Source: a virus
Lineage: Duplodnaviria; Caudoviricetes
IMG/VR virus record: IMGVR_UViG_2695421015_000002
DNA length: 64,000 nt
Strand: one strand, 5' to 3'
Shown here: positions 1 to 61,121 of the stretch, piece by piece
How the letters are laid out: every line of letters starts with the position of its first letter
Numbering within the stretch: position 1 is the stretch's first letter
The notes under the pieces: model-generated
Told to the model about the DNA's origin: nothing
What the model saw: only the letters and a program-made list of their open reading frames with translations
Databases searched by the model: none
Made by a program: the position numbers and the translations under genes

Positions 1-1140
1 TTACAGTTTTGATACCTCCAACAGTTCAGTGAACGTCTCTGGAGTCTCGTGCCGGTAGGTCTTGCGGATCGTCTCGACCGAGACACCGCAATAGAGGCTC
101 ACGGTTTCAATGTCGACCTTCTTCCCTGTCCGTCGATCTGGCGTCAGATACCAGGTGATCGCTGTATGCCGCAGCGTGTGACGCAAGACCTTGCGTTCCT
201 TTTCCTCAGTTGCGAGGCCGGCCCGCTCAACGACAGTTTCCCAACCATCGTGGATGCGGCGGACGCGCTTGCCCATGAACTCGATCACCGAGTGGTTCGA
301 AACCCCGACCCGCGCCCATCGCCGCATGTGTGCCAGCAACCGGGGTGGCAGGGGGATGGTAGGCTGCCGCTTGCTAGTAGCCTCCTTGTTGTCAGGCTTC
401 CGCTTGAAGATGCCACGCTCGAGGTCGACGTAACCACGATCGATCGCCGGAACGAGTGACGCGTTGCAGATGTCGCCATTGCGACTGCCGGTGTAGATGC
501 CGATCAGGATATAGCGGGCGATGTGGCGCAACGTGTGTCGACCCTTGCTGGTGGACAGCTTGGTCTTCTTGCGCTCACGCCAGGCGGCCCACAACATTGC
601 CGCCGCCTCATCACGGGTCAGGTATCGAATGCGAGATTTCGGAGCGTCCGGCAATGTCGCGCTGAATTTTGGTTGGATCCCGCCCTTCGTCTTCTTGACG
701 CATCGGTTTATCGCGGCCTGCAACAATTTCAGATCGCGATGTGCCGATGGTTGTAGGACTCGCTCCTCGGCGTAACGTTCCTGCAAGTCGGCGGTGAGGT
801 TGCCGATGGTGTAATCTTTGAACCAGTCCCCGATACGGGCGATCGCCGATAGCAGCTGGTTCTTGTAGGTCTGGTCTATCTTCCTTTTGTTGATGTGCTG
901 CGCCTCCAGCATGATCACATCGACTATGCGGATCGAGTTGACGTCCGAGGTTGTAAGCGCCTTTTTTGGGTCGTGCTTTTTCGCGATGTACCGGGCGAGG
1001 GCTTTTTCAGCTCCGACAGCATCAGCCTCATGGCATCCTGTGCCACGAGTAAGCTGTCCGTCTCGGATGACCCAGGTTGGGGCACGACCGTCTTTGTATT
1101 TTTTAAGGGTGACGTATGGGGCTTTGCGGCGACGCGGCAT
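1..1140 (-). CDS. int: Phage integrase, tyrosine recombinase
   Basis: Catalytic motifs TGSR, HTLRH and C-terminal Tyr (RKTYRH); N-terminal arm-binding-like region. Confidence 0.92.
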   Translation of the reverse strand: MPRRRKAPYVTLKKYKDGRAPTWVIRDGQLTRGTGCHEADAVGAEKALARYIAKKHDPKKALTTSDVNSIRIVDVIMLEAQHINKRKIDQTYKNQLLSAIARIGDWFKDYTIGNLTADLQERYAEERVLQPSAHRDLKLLQAAINRCVKKTKGGIQPKFSATLPDAPKSRIRYLTRDEAAAMLWAAWRERKKTKLSTSKGRHTLRHIARYILIGIYTGSRNGDICNASLVPAIDRGYVDLERGIFKRKPDNKEATSKRQPTIPLPPRLLAHMRRWARVGVSNHSVIEFMGKRVRRIHDGWETVVERAGLATEEKERKVLRHTLRHTAITWYLTPDRRTGKKVDIETVSLYCGVSVETIRKTYRHETPETFTELLEVSKL

Positions 1141-9540: not shown

Positions 9541-9948
9541 TTAGGCCGCTCGACGCTCCTCCCACATCTTCAAGCTCAGCTCCGAACGGAGACGCTTGAA
9601 GCCTGGGAAGTTGAGGTTCTGCTTCTGTGTGCCCCATTCGAGGTTGCTCGGTTTGTTGTTCGAGCTATCCTCGTCCAGGTGCATCACCACAGCCTCTTCG
9701 AACGGCTTTGCCCCGTGGAAGGCCTCGCACACCAGGACATGAACCTTGTGGGTCTTGCCCTTGTAGACGAGGACGAAGCGCAGCTCTTCCGGATCCCAAG
9801 TGCCGGTGGTCGGCACTCCGCCGTAGACCCTGAACCCGCCCTTAGGGAGCGGAGCCAGGTGGGGCAACCTCATCACTCTTCCGAGTGCAGAGGCGAGGTA
9901 CTCTGGAAGCCGGGGGATCGGCCTCCAGATCTCGTTGTTGTCGTTCAT
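9541..9948 (-). CDS. NUMOD4 + HNH homing-type endonuclease
   Basis: EIWRPIP..Y.AS..GRV (NUMOD4); VHVLVCEAFHG...HLD...NN..NLEW (HNH). Confidence 0.85.
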   Translation of the reverse strand: MNDNNEIWRPIPRLPEYLASALGRVMRLPHLAPLPKGGFRVYGGVPTTGTWDPEELRFVLVYKGKTHKVHVLVCEAFHGAKPFEEAVVMHLDEDSSNNKPSNLEWGTQKQNLNFPGFKRLRSELSLKMWEERRAA

Positions 9949-10642: not shown

Positions 10643-12217
10643 TCAAAAATCTGGCTTACGAAATAGCGACGCCTTGTCGTCGAAGCTCAGATCCACGATC
10701 CCGGTGAGGCCGGCGATCCGCTTGAGGCGGACCTTGGCGATGATCACCTGTCGTTCGTTCGGCGCCTCCGCGATCCGCTCCTGGTCCGCATGGACCACGA
10801 TGCCGAGGTCGGCCTTGTTGTACCAGTGCGCCGAGTCCGAGATGTTGTAGAGGGTCGGAACCGACTTCAGGTCCAACTTGGTCGGATGGGCCACGACGAT
10901 GACACAGACACCAAACTGCTTGGCGAACCGCTTCATCTTCTTGATCGCCTTTCCGACGTACTCGGTCAGCGAGATGTTCATCGGCCGGTTGTGCTCCAAC
11001 TCGTTCCACGGGTCGATGAGTAATACCTTGACGCCGTCCCGGAAGACGGCGGCTGCCGCTCTGTCCAGGATGAAGTCCAGGTCGATGTCCTGGTCGAGGG
11101 ACTCATCGTAGTCGATGAACTGGAAGTAGCGCTGTACGAAAGCCTCGGCGCGCTTCTTCTCTTCGAGAGACCATTCATCCTTCGCCTTGTCCAGGAAGGC
11201 CGTCATCAGCTCGTTCGCCAGGAACGGCTTGACGTCCTTCTCGCCCGAGAAGACAGCGACCGGCCACTTATGGCGCTTCGCCGCCAGCGTGACGATTTGG
11301 TTGATGAGGGTCGACTTACCGACGTTCGGGATACCAGTCGCGACCACGAACTGCCCCTGGTAGAGCTTCATGTGGTCGTCGAGCTTCTTCGAGATCCCAA
11401 GCTCGATCATCATCGGGATATCGAGATCTGGATAATCCGATAGGCGGAACAGTCCCTTTACCGGCCATGGCTTGGCATTCTCGATGATCTCGCGAACCTT
11501 CTCGGGACCGAAGTACTTCTTGACCTCGTTCATGTCCTTGCAGGGACGGAGCTTGCCTCGCTTCTTCTTGTCGGGCACGACATCGTCCTTCGGATATTCT
11601 ATCCAGAAGCACTTGGCCGCGCCGATGCGTCTGACCAGCTCCTTGGCGAGCCGGCCACCGGGTTCGTCGCCATCGACGGCGATGATGTGATATTTGACCC
11701 GCATGATCTGGTCCATCAGGCGAGCCATGAAGGCGAACTTGTCGTCGTCCTCAGGGTCGATATCCCGATCGTCGTCCGGGACGTGGATCAGCTTGCCGTT
11801 CTTGTCTCGCGCAGGGGGGGCTCCGTCCGGCACGGAGATGCAGGTGTCGTAGCCAGACAGCAGAACCGCGTGGCAGTCGGGCTCGCCCTCCACCCAGATC
11901 AGGGAGTCGGTACCAACCTCAAGCCGCGTCATCGTCTCCTCGTTGAGGAGGACGTTAGCGTTGTAGACCGTCTTGGTCGCACCGCGCTTCTGCATGAAGC
12001 GGCGCTCGCCGTCCTGAACCCAGCGGTACTTGCAGTTGACCTCGATATCGCCTTCCCAGTAGGGCCAGCACAGGACGTTCCCATTGGGATCGCGTTCAAC
12101 TATGACGTTGTCCTGCGAACCTCGCGAGAGACGCCCGCTGTAGAGCCCCATATCCGCCGCCAGCTCGACGCTCAGCTCGCGGTCCTCCAGTCCTCTCGCG
12201 TGTCTCTCGTTTAGCAT
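10643..12217 (-). CDS. TOPRIM primase / SF4 helicase (T7 gp4/Twinkle-like), lacking the N-terminal zinc-binding domain
   Basis: VEGEPD and DGDEPG (TOPRIM); GIPNVGKST Walker A, IDPWN, VAHP; ATG 12217. Confidence 0.88.
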   Translation of the reverse strand: MLNERHARGLEDRELSVELAADMGLYSGRLSRGSQDNVIVERDPNGNVLCWPYWEGDIEVNCKYRWVQDGERRFMQKRGATKTVYNANVLLNEETMTRLEVGTDSLIWVEGEPDCHAVLLSGYDTCISVPDGAPPARDKNGKLIHVPDDDRDIDPEDDDKFAFMARLMDQIMRVKYHIIAVDGDEPGGRLAKELVRRIGAAKCFWIEYPKDDVVPDKKKRGKLRPCKDMNEVKKYFGPEKVREIIENAKPWPVKGLFRLSDYPDLDIPMMIELGISKKLDDHMKLYQGQFVVATGIPNVGKSTLINQIVTLAAKRHKWPVAVFSGEKDVKPFLANELMTAFLDKAKDEWSLEEKKRAEAFVQRYFQFIDYDESLDQDIDLDFILDRAAAAVFRDGVKVLLIDPWNELEHNRPMNISLTEYVGKAIKKMKRFAKQFGVCVIVVAHPTKLDLKSVPTLYNISDSAHWYNKADLGIVVHADQERIAEAPNERQVIIAKVRLKRIAGLTGIVDLSFDDKASLFRKPDF

Positions 12218-12419
12218 TCTCTGAACCACTCCATGTGCAATGGTGGCAATTCCAAACCACCCCTTTGTCATCGATCTTCACGCTGAGGCACCGGATCTTC
12301 TTGTGCGACCCCTTGCGGGTGTGCGAGCAGTGCGGGCACAGCGTGTACTGGTTTCCGAACTTGAGGGACTTAACCTTGATGCCCTCTTCACCCAGGACCT
12401 TCCCGACGTCGATCGCCAT
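12096..12419 (-). CDS. Primase zinc-binding domain as a separate ORF
   Basis: CPHC...CLSV...WNCHHC. Confidence 0.8.
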   Translation of the reverse strand: MAIDVGKVLGEEGIKVKSLKFGNQYTLCPHCSHTRKGSHKKIRCLSVKIDDKGVVWNCHHCTWSGSENAKRETRERTGGPRAERRAGGGYGALQRASLARFAGQRHS

Positions 12420-13258
12420 CAGACGAACACGCCGGCATTGCGGATGCGGGACCGTGCAGCGTCCGAGCTTCCGCCCTTCTCACCCGGTTCCTCTGTCTCC
12501 CACCGTTCCTGGTTGAGCCAGGTGGTGGCGTGAGCGATGAACTGTTCGTTCTTCCGGTCCTTCTTGACCGCATCGCCCATCCGTTCCGCATAGATGCGGA
12601 GGCCGGCCATGATCGCTTCGAAGGTGACCCGATCCTCGCGCTCAAGCTTTTCGAGCTTGTCCAGCGCTGCCTTCTTGCTGGTGTTCTTCCGGCGCGGATA
12701 CAGATTCCAGAACTGCTCCCGATAATCCTCAGGCCACGGCGCAGTCTTGCGCCGCTTCTTCGGTTTGGGTTTGGGTTCAGAGTCTGGTTCTTGAGATGGT
12801 TCTAGTATACGGCTCTTCATGTCGGGCTCGCCGACATCGGTTGTCGCCGTGTTTGACATCCCTCGTCGCGGACGCTGACAACCCTCGTTGTTGTCGTTGT
12901 CGTAGGATGTCGCCGCTTTTGACATCCCCCCTGTCGGCTTATTTGACATGGGTCCGTCGTCGTTGATGCTCGGCTCTTGGGGCAGGTTCACCATCAGCCG
13001 GTACACCGACGATCGCTTGCCGCCGTTCTCGTGGAAGCGACGGGTCACCTCGATCAGGCCGATGGACTCCAGTGTCATCAGGCTGGTGTTCACCGTCTGC
13101 CGGGAGAGCATGGTCTTCGCGGCGATCGTGTTCTGCTTGGGATAGGTCTCGTTCTGCTCGTTGGCGTAGTTGGCCAGCGTGATCAGGACCAGCTTCAGGG
13201 TAGGCGTGATTTTTTCGTGATCCAGGTCGAACGCCCAGGTCAGTGCTCTCAGGCTCAT
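12419..13258 (-). CDS. Phage replication initiator (lambda O-like, N-terminal winged HTH)
   Basis: KLVLITLANYAN..TYP HTH; FWNLYPRR...TTWLNQERW C-terminal domain; internal iterons. Confidence 0.85.
   Translation of the reverse strand: MSLRALTWAFDLDHEKITPTLKLVLITLANYANEQNETYPKQNTIAAKTMLSRQTVNTSLMTLESIGLIEVTRRFHENGGKRSSVYRLMVNLPQEPSINDDGPMSNKPTGGMSKAATSYDNDNNEGCQRPRRGMSNTATTDVGEPDMKSRILEPSQEPDSEPKPKPKKRRKTAPWPEDYREQFWNLYPRRKNTSKKAALDKLEKLEREDRVTFEAIMAGLRIYAERMGDAVKKDRKNEQFIAHATTWLNQERWETEEPGEKGGSSDAARSRIRNAGVFV
12770..12949 (-). repeat. Iteron array and adjacent AT-richer tract, probable ori inside the initiator gene
   Basis: 19-bp units like ATGTC-N9-GACAT at 12819, 12841, 12863, 12907 and 12931 (22-bp phasing), next to GTATACTAGAACC and GAACC repeats. 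Confidence 0.75.
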
Positions 13259-13288: not shown

Positions 13289-13329
13289 TTGACAACCTTC
13301 CGGGGGTGGTGTATTTGCACGAATGCAAA
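13289..13329 (+). promoter_or_regulatory. Sigma70-like promoter overlapped by the 16-bp operator motif
   Basis: TTGACA (13289)-N17-TATTTG with TTTGCACGAATGCAAA at 13314-13329, in the divergent rep/ruvC gap. Confidence 0.55.
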
Positions 13330-30092: not shown

Positions 30093-30506
30093 TCAAGCAA
30101 ACGGCCAGACAGAATAAGGGCCGAAGGTTCCGTGGAAGGACACGTCGCAGAGCTTGCCTTCCTCGTCCTCGATCAGGTTCTCGTCTTCCGGATGGACGTC
30201 ATAGTCCATCAGCTTCACGACCACGCCGCGAGGCACTCGCGAGATGGTCGCCATGCCGCTTCGAAGCAGCACGATCACCATGCTGTCGGGCGTCGGCGAG
30301 TTGATGATGTCCCAGGGCGATTCCTCGTCGTTGCCTCGGAACGACTTGGGATACCGGCCATCTTCCTCGCGATAGCCGAGACGCTCGATGCCATCGAACG
30401 AGACTGCGAAGAGCAGGGGACCGCAGTCCCCATTGTAGAACCCCTTGCCGATCAGGCGGACAGGGCGACCCTCGCGGGTCTGCATCGGCTTGCTGAAATC
30501 AAGCAT
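30093..30506 (-). CDS. Phage hypothetical protein
   Basis: FSKPMQTREGRPVRLI motif common in phage proteins. Confidence 0.7.
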   Translation of the reverse strand: MLDFSKPMQTREGRPVRLIGKGFYNGDCGPLLFAVSFDGIERLGYREEDGRYPKSFRGNDEESPWDIINSPTPDSMVIVLLRSGMATISRVPRGVVVKLMDYDVHPEDENLIEDEEGKLCDVSFHGTFGPYSVWPFA

Positions 30507-30978
30507 CTTCGCGGACCTCAAGGTTGCGCAGACCGCAGACGCTCGGCCAATCGGGATCGCCGGTCTGCAGGAAGTTGTCGATCGCGGCCATCGCATAGGC
30601 CGGCGGGATCAGTTCGTAGGGGAAATCCCAGGCCTGGCCGTTATCGTCGTGAAGGTCGCACCGGTTGACGTCGGTGAAGGGAAAGAACAGCGGGTAGAGC
30701 GGCCGGCTGCGCTCCTGCTGGACGTAATGCGATGCCTTTGTGGAAGTCGTGGTGCGGTCGCGGGTCATGATCAGGAACATCCAGCCGCCGATGCAGCAGG
30801 TGGTGCCGCACTCATCCTGGTCGACGATGACGTTCATGTTGAAGCCGTTCTGCTGCTTCGGACTGTCGCCGTCGTCGAAGGCCAGCTTGTTGTTGGCGAA
30901 CAGTTCTCGGACCTCGATCGCTGCGAGGTACTCACCCTCAGTGATGCCGAGGGCCTTGTGTGAAAGTCTGTCGGGCAT
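30499..30978 (-). CDS. Phage hypothetical protein
   Basis: FNM...CGTTCCIGGW; GGAG RBS. Confidence 0.7.
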   Translation of the reverse strand: MPDRLSHKALGITEGEYLAAIEVRELFANNKLAFDDGDSPKQQNGFNMNVIVDQDECGTTCCIGGWMFLIMTRDRTTTSTKASHYVQQERSRPLYPLFFPFTDVNRCDLHDDNGQAWDFPYELIPPAYAMAAIDNFLQTGDPDWPSVCGLRNLEVREDA

Positions 30979-31651: not shown

Positions 31652-33361
31652 TCAGGACGATCGAGGTGGAAGTGGCAACAAGTCAGAGGCCGTATCCTGC
31701 CCGGTGCCAACATCGCTGTCTTTCAACCGGTTCGGATGTAGCTCGCCCGCAGCCTCAAGTGCGGGATATGCGACTGAGCAGATGTGCGAGTGGATACGTT
31801 TGAGATCGCGCAAAACATCGAGATGGAGGGAACTCGTCTCTATGCTTTCGGGCCGCGCGTCACGCAGCCGGGCCAAATGGCTTTCCGCGTAGCCGAGTTC
31901 GGCGACACGCAGCTGAGTCTTTTCCGCGATCAGCGAGCGAGCGATACGCACGTCCTCGTTGATGAAAACACTAAAGGCAAGTTTCAGGTTCTCAATAATG
32001 CGCTGGTGAAACATCGCGAGTTCCGTCGCTCCCTCCTTCGAGAACTCGTATTTGTGCTTGATCTTCTTGCTGGCCAACTCCATCAAATTCTTGTCGATGA
32101 TGTCGCCTATATGTTCGAGGTTGATGGCGAAAGCGATTATCTCCATGGCGCGTTGGCCATCCCGATCATCAAGGCTTTCGCGAGTCACTTTGGTGACGTA
32201 GAGTTTTATCGCTTCGTCCAATCTATCGACGATGTTGTCCATGCGCGAGACTTCGGCCACGAGCTTGCGGTCGTTGCTCATCAGTGCCGTCATCGCCTGT
32301 CGCAGCATGCGCTCGACGACATCACCCATGTGCAGTGTCTCGCGGGCGGCGCAGGCTAGCGCCACGGACGGCATGTGGATCGCCGTCTCATCCAGGTAGA
32401 GGGGTGCGGATGGATCGGCCGCCTTTGGCGGGTCGGGCAGCAGCCGCGTCAACAGGGATGCAAGGCCGTCCAACAGGAAGACGAAGGCCAGCGCCAGGAC
32501 CACGTTGAAGGCCATGTGGAAATCGGCGGCCATCCGGGCGCCATTGGGATCAAGTCGCGCAAAGAGGTCTGCGATCGGCTGAATGAAGGGCAAGACAAAC
32601 GCGACGCCGGCAGCGCGATTGATCAGGTTCCCGATCGGCAGGCGACGGCTTGCCGGGTTAGCAGAACTGCCACCTTCCAGCAGTGGATTGATCGCGCTGC
32701 CAAGATTAGCGCCGAGGACGAGCGCGAGGGCCGCGACCGGACTCACGAACTGCGAATAGGCGAGCGACATGACGAGCAACACCACCGCAGCGCTGGAATG
32801 GGCCGCCCAGGTGAGCGCAGCGGCGATCAGGACGCACAAAACGGGCGCGCCTGTGATCGTGGCAAGAAGCGCTCGTACACCTGGAGCATTCTCGGCTGGG
32901 GCGAGCGTATCCAACAGAATATGGAGAGACAGCAGCATAAGGCCAAGGCCGATCGCCACGCGGCCTAGGTCGCGGGCCAGCCTGCGGCCGCCGAAGTTGA
33001 ATGCCAACAGGCCCACCAAAAACAGGACGGGTGCGACCGCCGAGATGTCGAACGAGAGGGCTTGCACGATTAATGTTGTGCCGATGTTGGCGCCGAGCAT
33101 GACGGCCAGAGCCGGGACAAGATCGATGAGGCCACGCGCAGCGAAGGACGTCATCAGCAGGCCGGTCGCCGTGCTGCTCTGTAGGAGCGCAGTAACGCCG
33201 ATCCCGGCCAGCAGCGCCAGAAATCGGTTCCGCAGCGCCCTGCCCAGCACCTGCCGCAATTCGGAGCCGAACGCGCGCATGATCCCGCTACGGACCATGT
33301 GCAGGCCCCACAGGAGCAAGGCAACACCGCCCATCAAGTCAAGAAGAACAATGCTTCCCAT
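31652..33361 (-). CDS. Na/Pi cotransporter family protein with PhoU domains
   Basis: LQSSTAT, GANIGTT, HSS, GANLG repeats; C-terminal LEHIGD and DLKRIHSH. Confidence 0.92.
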   Translation of the reverse strand: MGSIVLLDLMGGVALLLWGLHMVRSGIMRAFGSELRQVLGRALRNRFLALLAGIGVTALLQSSTATGLLMTSFAARGLIDLVPALAVMLGANIGTTLIVQALSFDISAVAPVLFLVGLLAFNFGGRRLARDLGRVAIGLGLMLLSLHILLDTLAPAENAPGVRALLATITGAPVLCVLIAAALTWAAHSSAAVVLLVMSLAYSQFVSPVAALALVLGANLGSAINPLLEGGSSANPASRRLPIGNLINRAAGVAFVLPFIQPIADLFARLDPNGARMAADFHMAFNVVLALAFVFLLDGLASLLTRLLPDPPKAADPSAPLYLDETAIHMPSVALACAARETLHMGDVVERMLRQAMTALMSNDRKLVAEVSRMDNIVDRLDEAIKLYVTKVTRESLDDRDGQRAMEIIAFAINLEHIGDIIDKNLMELASKKIKHKYEFSKEGATELAMFHQRIIENLKLAFSVFINEDVRIARSLIAEKTQLRVAELGYAESHLARLRDARPESIETSSLHLDVLRDLKRIHSHICSVAYPALEAAGELHPNRLKDSDVGTGQDTASDLLPLPPRSS

Positions 33362-37796: not shown

Positions 37797-38638
37797 TGTT
37801 GTCTTCCTGCTTGGTGTTGCGACGAAACCGGCGGCGCATCATCGCGCTGACGCGGCTTTTGGCGCGCTTCGAGCGGTTGTTGCTGTAGGTTTCGGAGGGA
37901 TATTCATCGTGGCCGGGACAGCAGCCATATTGCTTGCGGTCTCGACCGTAACCCTCTCAGTGTCCGCATGTGCGGCGTCCCGAATGACGCAAGGCAGGCG
38001 CTACACTGAGAGGGGTGATTTGTTGGTGGGCGAGGCGTGCTTCACCGGCTTTCGCCTCCACCGTGTCTCGCTGTCGCTACCACCATCGCGACCTCATCCG
38101 AGGTCCGGGCCTGTTTTCACCGGGAGCGCCCGGCTTCACTTCATAGGGGCGGCACCCCTACTAGCCCGGCGCGACCCGGGCTCGTCTCGCAAATGGCCCT
38201 AGCAGATTGTTCGTGCGCTGCTGGCCGCACTCTGCGTCCGGTCGCTCGCGGTTTCACCGGTCAGTCGAATTGGATGGCCGGATAGCGCCGGCCTCGCCAC
38301 CGCGTTTGTGTCGCGGCAACTATGAGCTTCCGGATTTCTCCCCGGTCGCAAACTTCCCTACGTCATGTCATGGTGGCCATCATCGCCAGGCGTGGACCAA
38401 CACCTATGTGGCTAGGCCGGTTTGAGGTGCAGAGCAGGTAACACTGCTCGCGTGGTCCTGCGGGTTTCCCCAGCCTTTGAGTGCAGACCGCTTCTACTGC
38501 ACTCCGGGGCCTCGTTACGCCGCCTCCTTGTTCTTGGAGGCGAGCGCGGCACGGCGTCGCAGCATTCGCACCTGAGTGCGACTGCCGTCGAGACGTGTTA
38601 CTCTTTGCCAGTCGTCCTCAAGCCTTGATGAGGATCGA

Positions 38639-39613
38639 ATGGACCGGCGGGATTTGATAGCGGGTACTGCGGCACTGCTTGTTTCGCCACGGCGTTCGTG
38701 GGCACAGGGGCCGCCTCGCCGGGTTGGCTATCTTGATACCGCGCCCCTGTACTTGCCAAACTACAAGGTGTGGCAGGACAGTATGCGCAATCATGGCTGG
38801 ATCGAAGGGAAGAACCTGATCGTTGATTACCGGTCAGCCGAGGGGCACGCCGAGCGCGTAGTGCCTTTAGCGAACGAGCTTGTCGCGCTCAAGCCCGACG
38901 TGCTCGTTGGCCCGAGCTCGCAGGAAGCCCTAGCCCTGAAATCGGCAACTGCCAGCATTCCGATTGTTTTCTTTGCTGTGGGCCACCCCGTGCGGCATGG
39001 CCTCGTCCAAAGCCTGCCGCGTCCCGGCGGCAACGTAACGGGTCTGTCAACCATCGTACCGGGAAATTTCGTCAGCAAATGGATACAAATCCTGCGGGAG
39101 ACGGTTCCTGCCGCCTCAAAAATTGCGGTCGTGGTCAACCCGCACAATGCAGATCACAGGTTGGACGTAACCGAGGAGTTGCCCGAAATTGCCCGGAAGC
39201 TGGGCGTGACTTTCCAAGTACTGGAGGCGACCACGGTGGAGGAACTCGACATTGCCTTTGCCTCGGCCGCAGCCCAGCACGCCGATGCAATTCTTCCTAT
39301 TGGCGATGCATTGACCGTTAATCACGTCACACGAGTTACCGCGCTGGCGGCGGAGCATCGTCTGCCCGCGGTCTACGGCTTCCGACTGTTCACCACCAAT
39401 GGCGGTTTGGTTTCATACGGTGCCGATATAACCGATCTGCTCCGCCGTGCAGGCGACTACGTCGATAAAATTCTCAAAGGCACCAAGCCTGCCGATCTGC
39501 CAGTCGAGCAGCCGACCAAGTTCGATCTGGTGATCAACCTCAAGGCCGCAAAGGCGCTTGGCCTCGAAATACCTGCCTCATTGCTCGCCCGCGCCGACGA
39601 GGTGATCGAATAA
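38639..39613 (+). CDS. ABC transporter substrate-binding protein (ABC_sub_bind family)
   Basis: Tat-like MDRRDL; SLPRPGGNVTG; GGLVSYG; KILKGTKPADLPVEQPTKF...ADEVIE. Confidence 0.9.
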   Translation: MDRRDLIAGTAALLVSPRRSWAQGPPRRVGYLDTAPLYLPNYKVWQDSMRNHGWIEGKNLIVDYRSAEGHAERVVPLANELVALKPDVLVGPSSQEALALKSATASIPIVFFAVGHPVRHGLVQSLPRPGGNVTGLSTIVPGNFVSKWIQILRETVPAASKIAVVVNPHNADHRLDVTEELPEIARKLGVTFQVLEATTVEELDIAFASAAAQHADAILPIGDALTVNHVTRVTALAAEHRLPAVYGFRLFTTNGGLVSYGADITDLLRRAGDYVDKILKGTKPADLPVEQPTKFDLVINLKAAKALGLEIPASLLARADEVIE

Positions 39614-44673: not shown

Positions 44674-46298
44674 TTAAAATATTGTGAGTGCCAAGACTGG
44701 ATTACTCCCATCATAGCGAAGTTCTCCGCCACCAAGATTTCTTCCGTCTCGACTGAACCAGACTCGCTGTCCAAAACCGCCAGCTTGCGAAAACGCTGTC
44801 AGTATTCCGCCACCAAAAGTGCACATTGCAAGAACTGGTGATGTACCATCATAGGCCAGTTCCCCACCACCAAGATTTCTTCCGTCTCGACTGAACCAGA
44901 CTCGCTGTCCAAAACCGCCAGCTTGCGAAAACGCTGTCAGTATTCCGCCGCCATAACCGCACATCACATGAACCGGAGATGTTCCTTCGTAGCGAAGTTC
45001 CCCGCCACCAAGATTTCTTCCGTCTCGACTGAACCAGACCCGGTGCCCAGCACCACCAGCTTGCGAAAACGCCGTTAGCATTCCGCCATCATAAGCGCAC
45101 ATGGCTTGAACCGGAGATGTTCCTTCGTAGCGAAGTTCCCCGCCACCAAGATTTCTTCCGTCTCGACTAAACCAGACCCGGTGTCCAGCACCGCCAGCTT
45201 GCGAAAACGCCGTTAGCACTCCGCCATCGTAAGCAACCATTGCTCGCACAGGAGAGGTGCCATTGTAGCGCATCTCTCCAATTCCGAGACCTTCTCCATC
45301 TGGGCTGAAGTGAATGGCGTGACCATAACCACCGGTATTCGAAAACGCTGTCAAAACTCCGTTGGCGTATGGTAGCATTGCTGCTACGGGAGAACTACCC
45401 TTGTACAGAGGCCGACCGGACCCGAGCATCAATCCATCTTGACTCCAGTGCACTACATTGGAGAATCCTGTAAGTACGCTACCTCGCGTTACTGGTGAAT
45501 AAAGCCGGCTAATCGCTGTAATGTCATCGGTAGTCAACGCACGCGAACCCACGTCCTCGTCGTATGTTGCAAACATTACTGAACCCTGGACCGCGGAATG
45601 AGCCAAGCCTAAGGCGTGCCCGATTTCGTGCGTTGCGATGCTCTGAATATCAATCTGGTTAACTGCGATATTCAGCGCCCAAGGTTCTTCATTATCGAAA
45701 TGTACATCACCCGCAAATGCTCCAGGTGGCGGGTAAAACGCATGAGCGAGCACAGGGCCCTGTGGTCCATCAAATGGTGATCCATCACCGTGGTCGCGAA
45801 CTACAAACCTAACATTTATGTCGTGAGGTTGGGTATCAGCAACTTCGCGGAAAGTAAGGGGGGCACCACGGCGGCGGCCCAAGCCCCGAACGCTGCCACA
45901 AGCGCAGCTCGCGCTTGCGCGTCGGTGATCGCTCCACCAGGGAACTGGCTAATAGCGAATGTTAGGTTGGTTCTTTCCCATCTAGGCCCGGCCAGTACGT
46001 ACCTAGAATGGAAGTCGGGATCGGGCACTCCACATCGCGGCATATTTAAGAGCGCGGCGGTCCCAGCATCGGTTTCGCCTGTTTCCGCGAGACGGTGGCG
46101 CTTCTGAAATTTGCGGAGAGCGCGCTCCGTCTCGTCAGAGAAGTCGTTAGTTACCACTGCAGTGCTTGAATGCAGATCGACTCCGTCAGGACTTGTCGGT
46201 GAAGCGTATCCAAACCTGGAGAGGTATCGGTTCAATAGCTCAACGTCTGCGCTTTTATCGCCCTTGCGTAAACCTACCGGGATTAGCTCTCGTGCCAT
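44674..46298 (-). pseudogene. Matrixin (M10) metalloprotease with PG-binding domain and C-terminal repeats, frameshifted at a G6 run (45858-45863)
   Basis: PG-binding domain and cysteine switch PRCGVPD in one frame; LAHA, HFD, HEIGHALGLAHS and Met-turn in the other. Confidence 0.85.
44700..45260 (-). repeat. 138-bp (46-aa) tandem repeats in the protease C-terminus
   Basis: ACCAAGATTTCTTCCGTCTCGACT recurs at 44731, 44869, 45007 and 45145. Confidence 0.9.
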
Positions 46299-48765: not shown

Positions 48766-49206
48766 TTAAGCGCCGATGCCGCGGTGCGCCGCCTGGATGT
48801 GCTTCGAGATCGAGGCGTTGGTGATCTCCGCACCGCAAAAACACCGCGACCGGCCATCGGTGCGCTGGGTCGGCATCTGCATCTTCTCGTCCCACATTCG
48901 GTACTTCCAGGCCGTCCAGTCGCGCTGGTAGCGCCACAGCTCGAAATGCGCCTCGGTCTTGGCCCGCTCGATCTTCTTCCAGGCCTCCTCGAACTCAGCT
49001 CGCGCCTGCTCGAAGGTTGCTGCGGTTCCATGCGTCTGTTCGCTGATATCGCAGCCAGGGGTGAAGCCGCAGGACCAGCCCCACTGGTCCTCGTCGACCG
49101 GAACACCGGCTCGCATACCGATGTGTCCAACCCGGACATCGCCGTAATAGACGTTCCAGCCCTTACGATTCCGGTCGTTGTCAGGTCTGCGGGTGAGGGC
49201 GGTCAC
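48766..49206 (-). CDS. Hypothetical protein
   Basis: GTG start; WGWSCGF...GTAATFEQARAEFE. Confidence 0.65.
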   Translation of the reverse strand: MTALTRRPDNDRNRKGWNVYYGDVRVGHIGMRAGVPVDEDQWGWSCGFTPGCDISEQTHGTAATFEQARAEFEEAWKKIERAKTEAHFELWRYQRDWTAWKYRMWDEKMQMPTQRTDGRSRCFCGAEITNASISKHIQAAHRGIGA

Positions 49207-49294
49207 GTCAGAAAAAGTACCACAAATTTCTGACAGACGGGAGGGCGCTTCGCGCCCAGAATCCCCACGTAACGGGGCGGGCCGGCGAGGGGGT

Positions 49295-49461
49295 ATGTCA
49301 GCGTGGACGACATGGGGGGTATGTCAAGCTGGACGACATAGGATGTCAAAGAGGCCGACATACGTATGTCAAGCTGGCCGACATACCTATGTCAAACAGG
49401 CCGACATGAAGAACCGTATATATCTAGAACCCAAACTATAACCCATACCCAGAACCCAAGA
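49295..49461 (+). repeat. Second iteron array plus AT-rich tract homologous to the initiator-internal origin
   Basis: ATGTC-N9-GACAT at 49295, 49321, 49343, 49366 and 49389, followed by GAAGAACCGTATATATCTAGAACC. Confidence 0.8.
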
Positions 49462-49679
49462 GTCTACCCCTCGCTGCCGCGGCGGGTGTCCGGCCGTCTC
49501 GGTTCCCGAATTTTGCATTCCATTTGCCTGGGCTTGACGAAATGCCGGGGTCAGTGTACAGGATGGGTAGATTAGCATTCGTGCAAATGCAAAGATCATC
49601 CGTTCGCCCCAACCCTGGAACAGCCGGGTCCAACCCAGCTGAGCCAGGGGAGGCGGCCTACCCACCCGGAGCAAACCCC

Positions 49680-50054
49680 ATGATGGACGACCTGATGTTC
49701 GCTGTGGTGCTCGCGGGCAGAACCTTGAAGGTTCTCACGATGATCTTCGGCGGCATGGGCGTCATGGTCGGCTTCCTCTTGCTCTGGCGAGCGGGTGCCA
49801 TCGTGGCAGAAAAATGTCTCGGGCGCTTCGCGCCAGAAGAGAACACTTCCGAGCCGGCGGCGCCGCAGACCTTCATGGGCTCCACCTCTCAGGTGACAGT
49901 TCACGATTGGCAGCGCTGGTTCGCTTTGATCCCAGTCAAGATCGACGGCCGGCGCAAATGGCTGCGCTTCGTTGAGCGGAGGCTGTTCCACACCTACGAC
50001 TACCTTTGGCGCTGCGACGATCACTTCTGGCAGTACCGCGCCATCGTGAAATGA
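49680..50054 (+). CDS. Phage membrane protein
   Basis: N-terminal TM segment; WFALIPVKIDG..WL..VERR. Confidence 0.65.
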   Translation: MMDDLMFAVVLAGRTLKVLTMIFGGMGVMVGFLLLWRAGAIVAEKCLGRFAPEENTSEPAAPQTFMGSTSQVTVHDWQRWFALIPVKIDGRRKWLRFVERRLFHTYDYLWRCDDHFWQYRAIVK

Positions 50055-52149: not shown

Positions 52150-52413
52150 ATGAAACGTCTCGCTGAACTCCGTCAGCGGGCGCGATTTCGGTGGCATGCG
52201 TTCATCGCCGCTCTCTCCATCTCGATGCCGGTGCTGCTCACCCAGCTCCAGGTCGTCGACCTGAAGCCGATCATCCAGCGATTCGGCATCAGCCAGGAGG
52301 TCGCAGCGATCATCGTCGCGCTGATCCCGTTCTACATCGCGCTGCTGAAGCCCATGGTCCACTTCGAGGACCAAAACGACTGTAAGGAACAGACCTCTAG
52401 TGGACAGCCTTAA
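52150..52413 (+). CDS. Holin-like 2-TM membrane protein
   Basis: Two hydrophobic segments; 87 aa; late region. Confidence 0.5.
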   Translation: MKRLAELRQRARFRWHAFIAALSISMPVLLTQLQVVDLKPIIQRFGISQEVAAIIVALIPFYIALLKPMVHFEDQNDCKEQTSSGQP

Positions 52414-53440
52414 TGCTACCGCGCTGGCCAACGGAATGATGTTTGGCGCTGCGGCGGCAACGCAGGTCCTCACCGACCCTCAATACGCAGCTCTCTATCA
52501 GCAACACTGCGGCATCATTACCACCGACATCGCGCTCAAGTGGAGCACGGTGCGTCCGACCGCCGACTTCGTCCCGAACTGGGGGCCGGCTGATCAGCTG
52601 ATCGCGTGGGCTGAGACCAACGGCATCATGGTCAAGGGCCATAACCTGGCCTGGAACGAGTACAATCCGGCCTGGCTATGGTCGTCGAACAGCACAGGCC
52701 CCGATTACGGCGTCTTGAATGTCGCAGTCCAGGACGCTCAGCGCTACTTCGATCAGCACGTCACCGAAACGGTCGGTCGATATGCCGGACGAATCCCCGT
52801 TTGGGACGTCGTCAATGAACCGATTGAGCCGGCTCACGGACGCGCCGACCTTATGCGTTCCAAGACGTGGATGAAGGTCTTTGGACCCGACTACGTCGAA
52901 CGTGCATTCCGTCGAGCGCACGCTGCTGACAGCGATGCCAAGCTGTTCATGAATGAACAGGTACTTGATCGTATGGGTTGCGAGAAGAACCGGATCGCGT
53001 TCCTCGCCCTGGTCGATCGTCTGCTCGGTCGAGGCGTCCCCATCCACGGTATTGGCTTCGAAAGCCACCTCACGCTCTGGGCCGGTGTCACCCACGAAGG
53101 TGTCATGTGGCTCCTCGAAGAGTTGCGGAAGCGTGGCCTCGAAGTCCATATCTCCGAACTCGATATCGCCCCGCTTGGGGGCAGCAACACGGCATTACCA
53201 GTCGCCACGACAGACACTACGCTGATCGATACTCGTGTCGCCGAAACAACCCGCTCCTACCTCAAAGACGTTCTGTCGTTCCCTAACGTCAAAGCCGTCA
53301 TTACCTGGGAACTCGCGGACAAATACTCCTGGCTCATCGCACAAGGTCAGAAGCGGCCCTTGCCCTTCGACGACAACTACCAGCCGAAGTCGATGGCCGC
53401 TGAGATCGAGCGGGCTTTCCAGAACCGGAGAGCCGGTTAA
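52400..53440 (+). CDS. Glycoside hydrolase family 10 (endo-xylanase-like)
   Basis: LKW, KGHNLAW, WDVVNEP (acid/base), GIGFESH, HISELD (nucleophile). Confidence 0.88.
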   Translation: MDSLNATALANGMMFGAAAATQVLTDPQYAALYQQHCGIITTDIALKWSTVRPTADFVPNWGPADQLIAWAETNGIMVKGHNLAWNEYNPAWLWSSNSTGPDYGVLNVAVQDAQRYFDQHVTETVGRYAGRIPVWDVVNEPIEPAHGRADLMRSKTWMKVFGPDYVERAFRRAHAADSDAKLFMNEQVLDRMGCEKNRIAFLALVDRLLGRGVPIHGIGFESHLTLWAGVTHEGVMWLLEELRKRGLEVHISELDIAPLGGSNTALPVATTDTTLIDTRVAETTRSYLKDVLSFPNVKAVITWELADKYSWLIAQGQKRPLPFDDNYQPKSMAAEIERAFQNRRAG

Positions 53441-53901: not shown

Positions 53902-53976
53902 GCCAGGGTAGCTCAATGGTAGAGCAGCGGAATCATAAATCGCAGGTCGTTGGTTCAACTCCTCCCCCTGGCACCA
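53902..53976 (+). tRNA. tRNA with CAT anticodon (Met/Ile2), T-stem degenerate
   Basis: GCCAGGG/CCCTGGC acceptor, TAGCTCAATGGTAGAGC D-arm, GGTTCAA, encoded CCA. Confidence 0.75.
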
Positions 53977-56717: not shown

Positions 56718-57311
56718 GTGTCTTTTGCAGATGAGTTCAACGTTCGGCAGATGCTGCAGCAGCTCTTCGAATCCCACCAGCGTCACAGCCTGATGGGACA
56801 TGATCGCCTGACGGCGATCGAAAACCACCTCAACCAACTGAAGGAACTATTCATGGCTCTCACCCCCGAAGTCCAGGCTCTTGTCGACCAGGACGCACTG
56901 CTCAAGTCGTCCGTGGATTCGATGAAGGCGAAGCTGGACCAGGTGTCGGCCCAGGTCTCCGATCTGCAGGCGAAGCTGGACGCTGCTCCGGCCGCCGGTA
57001 TCTCGGCTGAAGACCTGGCCGCCATCAAGTCGGTTACCTCCGACATCTCCGCGACTGTCGCGGAAGCACAGGCTGCGGTTGCCCCGCCCGCCGCGCCGGC
57101 TCCTGCTGCCCCGGTTGCCGATGCTCCGGCTCCGGCTGCCGATGCTCCGGTTGCTGACGCCCCGGCGCCCGCCGCCGATGCGCCTGCTGCCGACGCGCCT
57201 GCTGCCGACGCTCCGGCTCCGGCCGCGGATGCTCCCGCTGCCCCGGCTGCGGATGCGCCCGCTGCTGACGCTCCGGCTGCTCCGGCCGCCGACGCGCCCG
57301 CCGCGCAGTAA
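56718..57311 (+). CDS. Coiled-coil protein with an Ala-Asp-Ala-Pro repeat tail
   Basis: GAGG RBS, heptad region, (A/P)ADAP repeats. Confidence 0.7.
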   Translation: MSFADEFNVRQMLQQLFESHQRHSLMGHDRLTAIENHLNQLKELFMALTPEVQALVDQDALLKSSVDSMKAKLDQVSAQVSDLQAKLDAAPAAGISAEDLAAIKSVTSDISATVAEAQAAVAPPAAPAPAAPVADAPAPAADAPVADAPAPAADAPAADAPAADAPAPAADAPAAPAADAPAADAPAAPAADAPAAQ

Positions 57312-57407: not shown

Positions 57408-59156
57408 ATGGCTGTCATCAAATACCGGAAGGGTCAGTGGTCGATCATTGGCAAGTCCAAGTATATCCCGCTCGGCCCCGGCGGCCCTGGTCTCTCGGCT
57501 GCCACCGCATCCGTTGACGGCAAGACCTATACCGGCGCAGGCGTGAAGCCTCTGTCGACCGTCACCGTCTACGTTGGTGGCGTGCAGGCCGGCACCGCGG
57601 TCGCCGACGCCAATGGCGACTGGAGCTACACCTTCGCCAACGCACCTGCTAAGAACAGCGTGATCGGATGGGATGGCATCATCTCGGCGCCGACCACCAT
57701 CGCGCCGACTCCGCATCCGACGCTGGGCGGCCTTAACCTTTCCGGTGCGACCTTCACGCAAGGCGCAGCCGCCGGCACCGTGATCGGCACTTTCGCTGGC
57801 AAGACCGCAGGATCCACGCTTTCAATCTCTCCGAACGATGGCACGGTTGCCATCAGCGGTGACCAGACCAAGCTCGTCGTCGGCGCCACCGCCTCGACGC
57901 CCGGCACGCGCTCCTACACCGTCACCGAGACGGACGCCGATGCCACCAATGGTCCTAAGACCACCACGTTTGCGATCACCTGCAACATCGCTCTGCTCAA
58001 CCTGAATACCCGCTTCGTCGCGGAAGGCGACAGCATCACCGCTGGCTCGAACGGTCCGAGCTGGCTCTGGGCCTTCGACGCTGCATCCGCCGGCCGGTTC
58101 TTCATGCCGCAGGGCTACAACCAGGCGACTGGCGGCCAGACGGCTGCCCAGATGGCCACCCAGGTGGCGCAGATCACCGCGCTCAGCCCGAAAGTGGTCT
58201 CGCTGCTCGCCGGCACCAACGACCTCGGCGGAACGAGCGACACGCCTGCCACGATCTACGGCAATCTGAAGACCTGCTGGAAGGCCTACATCGACGGCGG
58301 CGCGCAGCACGTCATCATCGCGACGGTTATGCCGCGCAACGATAGCGTCTGGACGGCGCTGACTGCCGCCCGTCAGACTGATCGCGTCACATTGAACAAC
58401 CTGATCAGCGGATATGCCACCGATCCGGATCTTGCCAACTACAAGGACAAGCTCCACCTCGTGAACCTTGAGAGCTACAACCCGGCGACGGACTCGATCG
58501 AAGGTCTGCATCCTCAGTGGCTCGGCGCTATCAAGGTCGGCAAGCTCTTCGCGGCGGTCGCCAACTCGCTGATCGACCAGACGCACACGCTGAACGGCGA
58601 TCTTTATCTCGATGCAACGAATGTTCTGTCGTCGAAGAACCCGGCTCTGACCGGCACCACGGGGACCATGAGCGGCACGGCGCAACCGACAGGCGCAGTC
58701 GCTACCGGCTGGAGCGTATCGGAAAACGGCGGCATGACCGTCGTCTGTTCGAAGTCGACACTCAACGGCGCAGAAGCTCAGCGTATCGTGGTTTCCGGCA
58801 CCAACTCGACGGTCCAGCGGCTGGTAAACTTCAGCGCTGCGGTCAACGTCACCGGCAACATCGGAGACAGCTTCGAGGCCTGCATCGACTTCAGCCTGGC
58901 TGCTGGACACCAGAAGATCAGGGATATCGTCATCAACCACGCAACTGCTTCCACGCCGAACAGCGGAAACCAGTCGTTCAACTTCGACGGAGCGGGTGCG
59001 ATATCTGGCACGCTGCGATCCGCCGTGACGGCTCCGCTCTCCGCGGCCATCACCACCATCACCCTGCAGGCGCTACTGAACTTCGATGTCGGGACAGTCG
59101 GTGCAGACATCACCTGGGGCAAGCCGTACCTGCGGAAAGTGCCGGCCACCATCTAA
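57408..59156 (+). CDS. Ig/cadherin-like domains + SGNH/GDSL esterase, probable virion-associated protein
   Basis: VADANGDWSYT; GDSIT, GTND, GLHP blocks; beta-rich C-terminus. Confidence 0.8.
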   Translation: MAVIKYRKGQWSIIGKSKYIPLGPGGPGLSAATASVDGKTYTGAGVKPLSTVTVYVGGVQAGTAVADANGDWSYTFANAPAKNSVIGWDGIISAPTTIAPTPHPTLGGLNLSGATFTQGAAAGTVIGTFAGKTAGSTLSISPNDGTVAISGDQTKLVVGATASTPGTRSYTVTETDADATNGPKTTTFAITCNIALLNLNTRFVAEGDSITAGSNGPSWLWAFDAASAGRFFMPQGYNQATGGQTAAQMATQVAQITALSPKVVSLLAGTNDLGGTSDTPATIYGNLKTCWKAYIDGGAQHVIIATVMPRNDSVWTALTAARQTDRVTLNNLISGYATDPDLANYKDKLHLVNLESYNPATDSIEGLHPQWLGAIKVGKLFAAVANSLIDQTHTLNGDLYLDATNVLSSKNPALTGTTGTMSGTAQPTGAVATGWSVSENGGMTVVCSKSTLNGAEAQRIVVSGTNSTVQRLVNFSAAVNVTGNIGDSFEACIDFSLAAGHQKIRDIVINHATASTPNSGNQSFNFDGAGAISGTLRSAVTAPLSAAITTITLQALLNFDVGTVGADITWGKPYLRKVPATI

Positions 59157-59657: not shown

Positions 59658-61121
59658 GTGTCGTTGATCACCGATGTCTCCCCCGAGGAGGCAGCGGCCG
59701 AGATCCTGCGTCGTAGGAGAGGCCGCGAGCGCCTCATCGACTTCACCACTTACACTCTGCCGAAATACTACGCTGACCCGTTTCACTATCAGGTCGCGGG
59801 CGCCCTGGAGCGCGTTGAGCAAGGCCTTTGCAAGCGCCTGATGATCTTCGCGCCTCCGCGGCACGGCAAGTCTGAGCTGTCGACCCGACGCTTCCCGGCC
59901 TACTTCATGGCCAGGAACCCCGAGAAGAACGTCATCTCGGCTTCCTACAACGCTGACTTCGCCACCGGCTTCGGCCGGAACGTCCGCGACATCATCAAGG
60001 GCAGGCAATTCAATACGCTGTTTCCAGAAATCGCCATCCGCAGCGACCAGCGCGCTGCCGACGACTGGCAGCTCGAAGCGGGCGGTCAGTATTACGCGGT
60101 CGGTGTCGGCTCAGGCACCACCGGTAAGGGCGCCCACCTCTTTCTGATCGACGATCCGATCAAGGACCGCAAGGAAGTCAAGTCGCAAGGTTTCCGCGAC
60201 GACCAGTGGGACTGGTACCGCGACGTCGTTTACACCCGTCTCGAAGAGGACGCCGCAATCGTCCTCACGCTGACGCGGTGGCATTACGACGACATCGCCG
60301 GCCGGCTCATCGAGCTGATGAACGACGGCAAGGGCTTGCCCTGGGAGATCCTGTATCTGCCGGCGCTGCCTTACGTGAAGAAGTTCAAGAACGCTGAAGG
60401 CCTCGAAGAACTGATCCTCAACGAGGATGGTACGGTGCCCGGCGATCCGCTGGGCCGCACTCCGAAGGAGCCACTGGCTCCGAACCGCTTCTCCTACGAC
60501 GCTCTGATGGATCGTCTCGACGTTCTCGGCGAGCGATCGTTCTCCGCGCTCTATCAGCAGCAGCCGATGTCGGACGACGGCGGCATGTTCCGCGTCGACT
60601 GGTTTCAACCGCCGACCGAGATATCGCCGAGGCGTGTGCGTGTCCGCGCATGGGATTTGGCGGCGTCTGCTGACGGCGACTACACCGTTGGCGTCCTGAT
60701 GTCGAAGGATGCGAACGGCATCTTCTACATCGAGAACATCATCCGATTCCGCGGCACCCCGCTGCAGGTCGAGAAGAAGATCTTCGAGACAGCAAAGAAC
60801 GATGGCCGCTCGGTCACGATCGTTCTCCCGCAAGACCCCGGCCAGGCTGGCAAGAGCCAGGTCGACAGCTATATCCGCCGGCTCGCCGGCTACATCGTCA
60901 AGGCAAAACGCCCGACAGGATCAAAAGAGGTCCGCGCTGCCGCATTCGCTGCGCAGTGCGAGGCCGGCAACGTGAAGATGGTGCATGGCAGTTGGAATAA
61001 CTGCTTCACCGACGAATTGGAAACCTTCCCCCTTGGCACCTACGACGACCAGGTGGACGCGGCATCCGATGCGTTCAATGAGCTTCTCGGTCCGAAGAAG
61101 GCGCGAGTCCTTGACTGGTAA
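59658..61121 (+). CDS. terL: Terminase large subunit
   Basis: PPRHGKSE Walker A, LIDDP, TRWH, YQQQP, AWDLA, DDQVDA. Confidence 0.95.
   Translation: MSLITDVSPEEAAAEILRRRRGRERLIDFTTYTLPKYYADPFHYQVAGALERVEQGLCKRLMIFAPPRHGKSELSTRRFPAYFMARNPEKNVISASYNADFATGFGRNVRDIIKGRQFNTLFPEIAIRSDQRAADDWQLEAGGQYYAVGVGSGTTGKGAHLFLIDDPIKDRKEVKSQGFRDDQWDWYRDVVYTRLEEDAAIVLTLTRWHYDDIAGRLIELMNDGKGLPWEILYLPALPYVKKFKNAEGLEELILNEDGTVPGDPLGRTPKEPLAPNRFSYDALMDRLDVLGERSFSALYQQQPMSDDGGMFRVDWFQPPTEISPRRVRVRAWDLAASADGDYTVGVLMSKDANGIFYIENIIRFRGTPLQVEKKIFETAKNDGRSVTIVLPQDPGQAGKSQVDSYIRRLAGYIVKAKRPTGSKEVRAAAFAAQCEAGNVKMVHGSWNNCFTDELETFPLGTYDDQVDAASDAFNELLGPKKARVLDW

Follow-up and report, generated by a model that had tools for sequence, protein, structure and literature searches.

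For tailed phages other than a few models, the replication origin has mostly been placed by guesswork, on the basis of a single iteron cluster in or close to the initiator gene. Phage lambda has a single origin inside the O gene, in which dyad iterons of ~19 bp lie in the linker-coding part of the gene and are followed by an AT-rich segment and then a palindrome, and transcription helps this origin to melt. In the satellite phage P4, two iteron clusters (ori and crr) are located ~4.5 kb apart with the second inverted; crr consists of iterons only, and the initiator is the alpha primase-helicase. In R6K, the gamma iterons enable the alpha and beta origins, and in P1, incA restrains replication through handcuffing or titration. 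Iteron origins and second iteron sets are known already, and the module described here is not a new category. To our knowledge, a fixed two-origin architecture has not been described for any tailed phage.

The window analyzed here, a stretch of 64,000 nucleotides, belongs to one integrated prophage of ~103 kb, of which it makes up the left two-thirds; in window coordinates, the prophage extends from an integrase gene at 1-1140 to about 102.7 kb. This assignment is based on family scans and on protein comparison with Bradyrhizobium phage BDU-MI-1 (KY940711, 121,342 bp), with which the prophage is collinear throughout. No account of BDU-MI-1 replication or of paired origins in such phages was found in the literature, for which the coverage of older phage papers was thin. 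The leftward arm of the prophage begins at ~49.2 kb, lies mostly on the minus strand, and carries ligase, rIIA-like genes, helicases, a CI-like repressor region, rep, recombination genes, and the integrase. The rightward arm begins at 49.5 kb on the plus strand and carries tRNA-Met, thioredoxin, the terminase at 59658, and the portal protein, with the head and tail genes located beyond the window. As the arms run leftward from ~49.2 kb and rightward from 49.5 kb, the stand-alone module that is the subject of this analysis occupies exactly the divergent intergenic region.

Several other genes were noted along the two arms. The tRNA-Met (CAT) gene at 53902-53976 has a counterpart at the syntenic place in BDU-MI-1 (record 88589-88660). 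Host-like cargo includes a Na/Pi cotransporter with PhoU domains (31652-33361), an ABC substrate-binding protein (38576-39613), a family-10 glycoside hydrolase (52400-53440), and a GDSL lipase (57408-59156). A matrixin-like peptidase gene (44674-45882, minus strand) contains a 138-bp unit repeated in tandem about four times (87% matches; 44708-45405), and the encoded peptidase therefore carries a repeated domain.

The replication functions are found near the left end of the prophage, where the initiator gene contains an origin of its own:

1-1140, minus strand: integrase, left prophage end
10643-12271, minus strand: DnaB-like helicase gene directly downstream of rep, 74% identity to a BDU-MI-1 protein (annotated primase/helicase)
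12419-13258, minus strand: replication initiator gene (Rep, 279 aa), lambda-O-like, with an N-terminal HTH_36 domain
12755-12818, minus strand: RAACC repeats adjoining the genic iterons, GAAGAGCCGTATACTAGAACC...GAACC...GAACCC
12819-12949, minus strand: origin iterons inside rep, five recognizable units and one degenerate register
13314-13328, minus strand: motif TTGCATTCGTGCAAA upstream of rep, with a one-mismatch match beside the stand-alone module

Rep matches HTH_36 in Pfam (PF13730, E 7.8e-11) and, among the PHROG families, phrog_270 (E 9.8e-43) and phrog_391, 'replication initiation O-like' (E 4.4e-18). Within the gene, the iteron pattern is matched at 12819, 12841, 12907, and 12931, by two perfect units and two with one mismatch, and a degenerate unit occurs besides. 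On the minus strand of rep, the iterons are followed by GAAGAGCCGTATACTAGAACC and then by GAACC repeats, in agreement with the earlier note on this DNA, which had reported the same iterons and GAACC repeats in the initiator gene. The iterons encode the linker between the Rep domains, and the RAACC segment of the genic copies also codes for the Glu/Pro-rich Rep linker. The gene is followed by the DnaB-like helicase gene, the product of which is the likely partner to be loaded at the origins, and by an SSB gene. A possible homing-type insertion in this region is an HNH endonuclease gene (9541-9948, minus strand), which has the SSB gene on one side and small ORFs on the other, with replication and recombination genes around it.

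The second copy of this module lies 36.6 kb from the first, on the opposite strand and outside any gene, and is composed of the following parts:

49207-49495: whole stand-alone element, a copy of the origin module outside any gene
49207-49234: inverted repeat left of the array, GTCAGAAA-N12-TTTCTGAC
49243-49257: small hairpin GGGCGC-TTC-GCGCCC, right of the inverted repeat and left of the array
49289-49407, plus strand: iteron array of five units, each a G-run and a perfect 19-bp palindrome ATGTC-N9-GACAT
49408-49461, plus strand: AT-rich segment adjoining the iterons, a putative DNA-unwinding element that contains RAACC repeats at 12-16 bp spacing
49466-49487, plus strand: GC-rich dyad closing the module (ACCCC...GGGT), read from the sequence

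The five palindromes that had been noted, with a spacing of 26, 22, 23, and 23 and with AACCC repeats behind them, were recovered at 49295-49407. Perfect units start at 49295, 49321, 49343, 49366, and 49389, a G-run precedes each of them, and Tandem Repeats Finder returned a period of 23 with 3.9 copies (49319-49407). Right of the iterons follow GAAGAACCGTATATATCTAGAACC and then AACCC/GAACC repeats to ~49461, and the last unit is connected through GAAGAACCGTATATATCTAGAACCCAAACTATAACCCATACCCAGAACCC to the GC-rich dyad. The pattern ATGTC-N9-GACAT with at most one mismatch has 12 matches in the window compared to 1.65 expected, and a count of 12 was reached in 0 of 100 shuffles. When the stand-alone region was used as a BLAST query, the stand-alone and genic copies were the only copies of the module in the 9.09 Mb genome. 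The inverted repeat GTCAGAAA-N12-TTTCTGAC likewise occurs left of the BDU-MI-1 stand-alone array. The small hairpin, as GGGCGC-TTC-GCGCC(C), has a second copy in the window (49821-49834) and is also seen upstream of the stand-alone array in one viral relative (G403, about 57175-57190).

Searches around the module were otherwise negative within their scope. A tblastn search of Rep against the window revealed nothing Rep-like around 49.3 kb, as had been noted, and its sole match there was of 9 residues inside the array (E 9.1). No array was found beside other sites of the left-flank motif ACAAATTTCTGACAG, either in 400 genomes of the genus (at most one mismatch) or at 76 exact IMG/VR loci, and the matches of this motif outside the window were set aside as chance. 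A search of Rfam with 48900-49900 produced only a sub-threshold miRNA model (E 0.15), considered a chance match. Assembled contigs from four sequencing runs, which cover the region in fragments and of which one breaks off at the array edge, at position 49303, contained no close variant of the array.

The combination resembles the lambda system in its initiator with an N-terminal DNA-binding domain, its iterons in the linker-coding part of the gene, and its AT-rich segment and palindrome. Unlike lambda, there is a second complete copy outside genes, inverted and ~35 kb away, and a DnaB-like helicase of the phage's own in place of a P-type loader. The kinship is distant, as Rep is only remotely O-like by its phrog_391 match. 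The stand-alone copy possesses the lambda-O-like origin features of phased dyad repeats, an AT-rich neighbor, and a cognate initiator on the same element, whereas the placement inside the initiator gene applies to the genic copy only, the stand-alone copy being intergenic.

The check proposed in the earlier note, a search of related prophages for iteron pairs that co-vary in both places, was performed on independent phages or prophages that carry this Rep and in which both regions are readable (n = 7); these seven are kin and not statistically independent. Rep homologues at E 1e-20 or better were present in two of 400 other genomes of the genus (G366 with 52% and G138 with 47% identity). A scan of IMG/VR with the Rep alignment returned 69 loci, from which five large records were compared whole; two of these are the G366 and G138 prophages (as G401 and G404, respectively), and the remaining G402, G403, and G405 are new. 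For each phage, the distance between the two modules and the class of the iteron half-site are:

Window prophage: 36.6 kb; half-site class CGACA(T)
BDU-MI-1: 38.4 kb; half-site class TGACA
G366 (= G401): 33.5 kb; half-site class TGACA
G138 (= G404): 34.6 kb; half-site class TCACA
G402 (108 kb record with terminal repeats, a complete-looking viral record): 36.0 kb; half-site class GAACA/AGACA
G403 (114.5 kb provirus): 38.3 kb; half-site class CGACA(T)
G405 (119 kb record): 37.1 kb; half-site class TGACA

A genic array and a gene-free module on opposite strands are present in all seven phages, 33.5-38.4 kb apart, and the Reps of the relatives are 40-52% identical to that of the window. Integrases occur in the window prophage and in BDU-MI-1, which is also a free phage, and G401, G403, and G404 are proviruses according to IMG/VR. 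Additional records were left uncounted or unscored: four fragments (G406-G409, 31-54% complete) have rep, with contigs that end before the expected stand-alone site, and the 72 kb fragment G411 has the stand-alone module and no rep within the fragment. A profile search of genome contigs with the Rep alignment identified three loci, G138 and two distant actinobacterial matches, and thus no new example, and an IMG/VR scan with TGACACCTTDAACCA in which adjacent iterons were required identified at least seven places, all of them known records or short fragments. Two smaller phages with a related Rep, one represented by a partial genome of 37.6 kb and the other by a record with a completeness rating of 69%, show the genic origin only, from which it follows that one origin suffices for this initiator type, with the proviso that both records are incomplete. 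The module pair appears to be characteristic of the large BDU-MI-1-like phages.

The arrays in both places change together. All 14 modules are built of 17-19-bp units in a common 22-24 bp register, with three to five phased iterons per stand-alone copy, and the half-site class is identical between the stand-alone and the genic array in each of the seven phages. The four half-site classes imply at least three specificity changes common to both sites, if the classes are read as binding specificities. Similarity between modules was scored over 120 nt (three units and 50 nt beyond), and the best genic match of the stand-alone module was that of its own phage in six of seven cases; in the exception, G366, the own genic copy (0.69) ranked third behind values of 0.71 and 0.70. 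Within the TGACA class, the stand-alone copies are closer to each other (0.76-0.78) than to their own genic copies (0.69-0.74), which indicates an orthologous lineage derived from an old duplication and not fresh copying. By these comparisons, the stand-alone copies have tracked changes in initiator specificity since the duplication. That the element is a cis site under selection and tied to the initiator, as had been argued, is strongly supported by the co-varying pairs. The argument had also been made from palindrome quality, and this holds for the window, where all five stand-alone units are perfect compared to two perfect genic units, but not as a rule of the family: when 7-bp arms were counted in the three anchor-proximal units, the stand-alone copies were better in four phages, equal in one, and worse in two.

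The same observations bear on whether the module is a neutral relic of a partial rep duplication or a chance repeat. The stand-alone module clearly has the same sequence origin as the genic one, as would be expected of a relic. The array, however, is far beyond chance and has no Rep-like coding sequence around it, neither a decayed rep flank nor the absence of the copy from relatives was found, and seven of seven phages, with Reps of only 40-52% identity, retain the module at one and the same place in the backbone, their half-sites co-varying and the 22-24 bp register conserved. A relic is scarcely credible under these circumstances, and as far as sequence comparison reaches, it is ruled out together with a chance repeat. 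It is instead strongly supported by the comparison that the stand-alone element represents a gene-free second copy of a lambda-O-type origin that has been retained by selection.

In the segment beside the last unit, the best 50-nt window has 52-66% AT in all 14 modules, compared to genome means of 38-41%, and this ranks in the top 0.2-4% of 50-nt windows in every case; for the window segment (49408-49461), the value is 62%, matched by only 0.63% of prophage windows. Five of the seven phages have the higher AT content in their stand-alone copy; in one the two copies are equal, and in one the genic copy is the richer. Of the 14 modules, 13 contain RAACC repeats at 12-16 bp spacing, among them six of the seven stand-alone copies, where the repeats persist although nothing is encoded there; the G403 stand-alone copy has a longer AT-rich run instead. 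Closing dyads are also retained: CCCC-loop-GGGG, read from the sequences, follows the stand-alone modules of BDU-MI-1, G366, G138, and G402, and the corresponding structures are a CCC-TTTT-CGGG stem in G405 and GCGCGC-T-GCGCGC in G403. In a distant relative, Pseudomonas phage vB_Pae_CF183a (L258), the Rep of which is only 29% identical, palindromic iterons GGGGTGCAAC...GTTGCACC inside rep (30480-30630) are likewise followed by RAACC repeats TTAACCACCAAAGAACCACCAAAGAACC. The occurrence of TTAACCACCAAAGAACCACCAAAGAACC-type repeats at this distance suggests a DNA-level role of the RAACC repeats that is common across the Rep family, and it marks the repeat as a deep-rooted trait of this kind of origin. 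The arrangement is reminiscent of RK2 oriV and the 13-mers of E. coli oriC, in which phased sites stand beside three or four repeats with ~13-bp spacing in AT-richer DNA, unlike which the repeat here is RAACC-based and, in the genic copy, protein-coding.

Among the four functions that had been offered for the second copy, a dual-origin design is favored, for which the retained AT-rich RAACC segment is the argument, and a handcuffing or enhancer role is still compatible with the data. The chance that the stand-alone module is a second Rep-dependent replication origin is judged to be about even. It is favored because the putative unwinding segment has been retained without coding constraint and because forks starting from this site would travel in the direction of transcription along both arms.

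The stand-alone copy could alternatively be a cis partner site with no origin activity, at which Rep-Rep looping over ~35 kb enables or restrains the genic origin in the manner of crr, R6K, or P1 incA. The inverted orientation and the 33.5-38.4 kb distance conserved in seven of seven phages would suit such a pairing geometry, and co-variation shows only that one protein reads both arrays. As in P4 ori-crr, there are two separate clusters of one initiator's iterons per genome with the second inverted, here in all seven phages; unlike P4, the clusters are separated by 33-38 kb, a 279-aa HTH_36 Rep with a separate helicase gene serves as initiator, and the second site copies the AT-rich repeats too. 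As in R6K alpha/beta/gamma and P1 incC/incA, distant iteron sets are served by one initiator, and in those replicons looping or handcuffing controls firing. Those are cases of plasmid copy control within a few kb, whereas here the element belongs to an integrating tailed phage of ~100-120 kb, and in contrast to P1 incA, the stand-alone set has a putative unwinding element of its own. Copy-number control of the P1 kind is a property of plasmid prophages, while these phages have an integrase and are found integrated. For a partner site, iterons alone would do, yet the stand-alone copies retain the RAACC/AT-rich segment and the closing hairpin in the absence of coding constraint. According to one report on lambda, extra origin iterons carried on a plasmid shut down theta replication when combined with oop, an effect for which the AT-rich part is unneeded (PMC3349717); this speaks for a partner site. 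Taken together, a partner site is a possible explanation with clearly less than an even chance. It should also be kept in mind that concerted evolution of the whole module could be explained by gene conversion or by a non-initiating protein that binds both parts.

The position of the module is conserved along with its sequence. In seven of seven records it coincides with the point where gene orientation changes from minus to plus, or is no more than a few kb away from that point, and by synteny the backbone order is constant (late arm, module, early-left arm). Two features flank it in the window:

48766-49206, minus strand: conserved 146-aa ORF, the start of which abuts the module; part of a variable ORF-ligase cassette
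49511-49587, plus strand: rightward promoter-like block, TTTGCATTCCATTTGCC, with a TTGACG -35-like hexamer at 49534-49539 and TAGCATTCGTGCAAA at 49573-49587

The ORF-ligase cassette flanks the module on one side in three phages (the window prophage, G138, and G403) and on the opposite side in two (BDU-MI-1 and G366); G402 and G405 lack it. Using a general detector, an array was identified near homologues of the 146-aa ORF at only one of 29 loci in other genomes of the genus, namely in G138, which has this Rep, and hence the array goes with Rep and not with the ORF. A second homologue of the ORF in the same genome (G000:C1, about 3133540-3133885, 66% DNA identity) probably belongs to another prophage. 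In three phages (the window prophage, G138, and G403), no more than tens of bases separate the array from the start codon of a leftward ORF, and leftward transcripts would therefore begin in or beyond the module and cross it. On the other side, five of seven phages have the promoter-like block (ATTTGCAT..., TTGACA/G, TAGCATTCGTGCAAA) 95-340 bp past the AT-rich side, directed away from the module. A consensus scan of 48900-49900 for sigma-70 promoters and terminators found neither. A link between replication and the nearby rightward promoter, which had been suggested, is thus compatible by position in five of seven phages, but the suggested link to packaging is not supported, with the terminase gene 10 kb away.

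At the stand-alone module, the sign of the GC skew turns from plus to minus in seven of seven records, coinciding with the switch in gene orientation. No GC-skew signature of an origin was seen at the stand-alone copy in the seven records, and the polarity would be that of a terminus if the skew were driven by replication. Regression of skew and gene orientation over these records gave R2 values of 0.06 to 0.12, the models being confounded with gene orientation; placing the origin at rep and the terminus at the stand-alone copy (R2 0.12) fitted about as well as any alternative. This skew, together with the proximity of the promoter-like block, would fit a module that blocks or terminates forks when bound by Rep, or one that serves as a Rep-dependent switch linking replication to the rightward promoter. 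As the skew change coincides with the gene-orientation change, a replication cause is unneeded; further, in BDU-MI-1 and G366 a gene cassette of 1.3-4 kb parts the module from the divergent promoter region, and the AT-rich repeat segment is needed by neither role. A barrier or switch is therefore considered unlikely.

The earlier note had also raised the idea of a decoy against related phages, which would sequester their initiator on superinfection; no support for this was found. Because the iterons belong to the phage's own Rep class, a decoy would act on the phage itself and its own kind, which are already covered by immunity, and the module is retained both in the free phage BDU-MI-1 and in the complete-looking viral record G402. 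The AT-rich segment would, moreover, be superfluous. Iterons of this kind would titrate an initiator of the same specificity, and the lambda plasmid exclusion phenotype is a partial precedent (PMC3349717); a decoy nevertheless remains very improbable.

If the stand-alone module is a second origin, replication may proceed as follows. Rep dimers would bind each palindromic unit in both arrays via the N-terminal winged helix, by analogy with lambda O and iteron plasmids, after which the AT-rich RAACC repeats would melt and the DnaB-like helicase of the phage would be loaded there. Theta replication of the ~103-121 kb genome would thus begin at two places. Forks leaving the stand-alone copy would move with transcription along both arms, and firing of the rightward promoter-like block that faces the AT-rich side in five of seven phages could aid melting. 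The herpesvirus oriS/oriLyt pairs and the multiple origins of phage T4 likewise provide more than one lytic origin copy, inverted in the herpesviruses; the initiators are unrelated, and the likeness is one of analogy only. A more ambitious and, as a whole, doubtful proposal is that these temperate Bradyrhizobium phages of ~100-120 kb possess an obligatory inverted pair of complete Rep-dependent origins ~35 kb apart that works as a coupled unit, in which Rep-mediated pairing would set the timing or the direction, transcription from the neighboring promoter would license the stand-alone copy, and replication would follow transcription over most of the genome.

The retention of a full second copy through deep divergence (40-52% Rep identity), with sites that changed in step with the genic ones, bears on how a temperate phage of ~100 kb arranges its replication relative to transcription. 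The seven phages also provide a natural set of matched initiator-site specificities in four classes. For annotation, the pairs serve as a warning that the iterons inside rep are perhaps not the sole, or even the main, origin in large prophages. Should the module be a pairing or enhancer element, the principle of P4 ori-crr would be stretched to a ten-fold distance and to a different initiator class.

A minor observation concerns a short motif dispersed through the prophage. The 15-bp motif TTGCATTCAAGCAAA and its near variants occur 17 times in the window at three or fewer mismatches, compared to 1.5 expected, with sites that include 3794, 7194, 10621, 19723, 27765, 27862, 30087, and 31037 on the plus strand and 63336 on the minus strand. 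Most copies lie just upstream of leftward gene starts, and the variant TTGCATTCGTGCAAA is found at the rep promoter (13314) and at 49573. The motif is probably a phage-specific promoter or regulator site.
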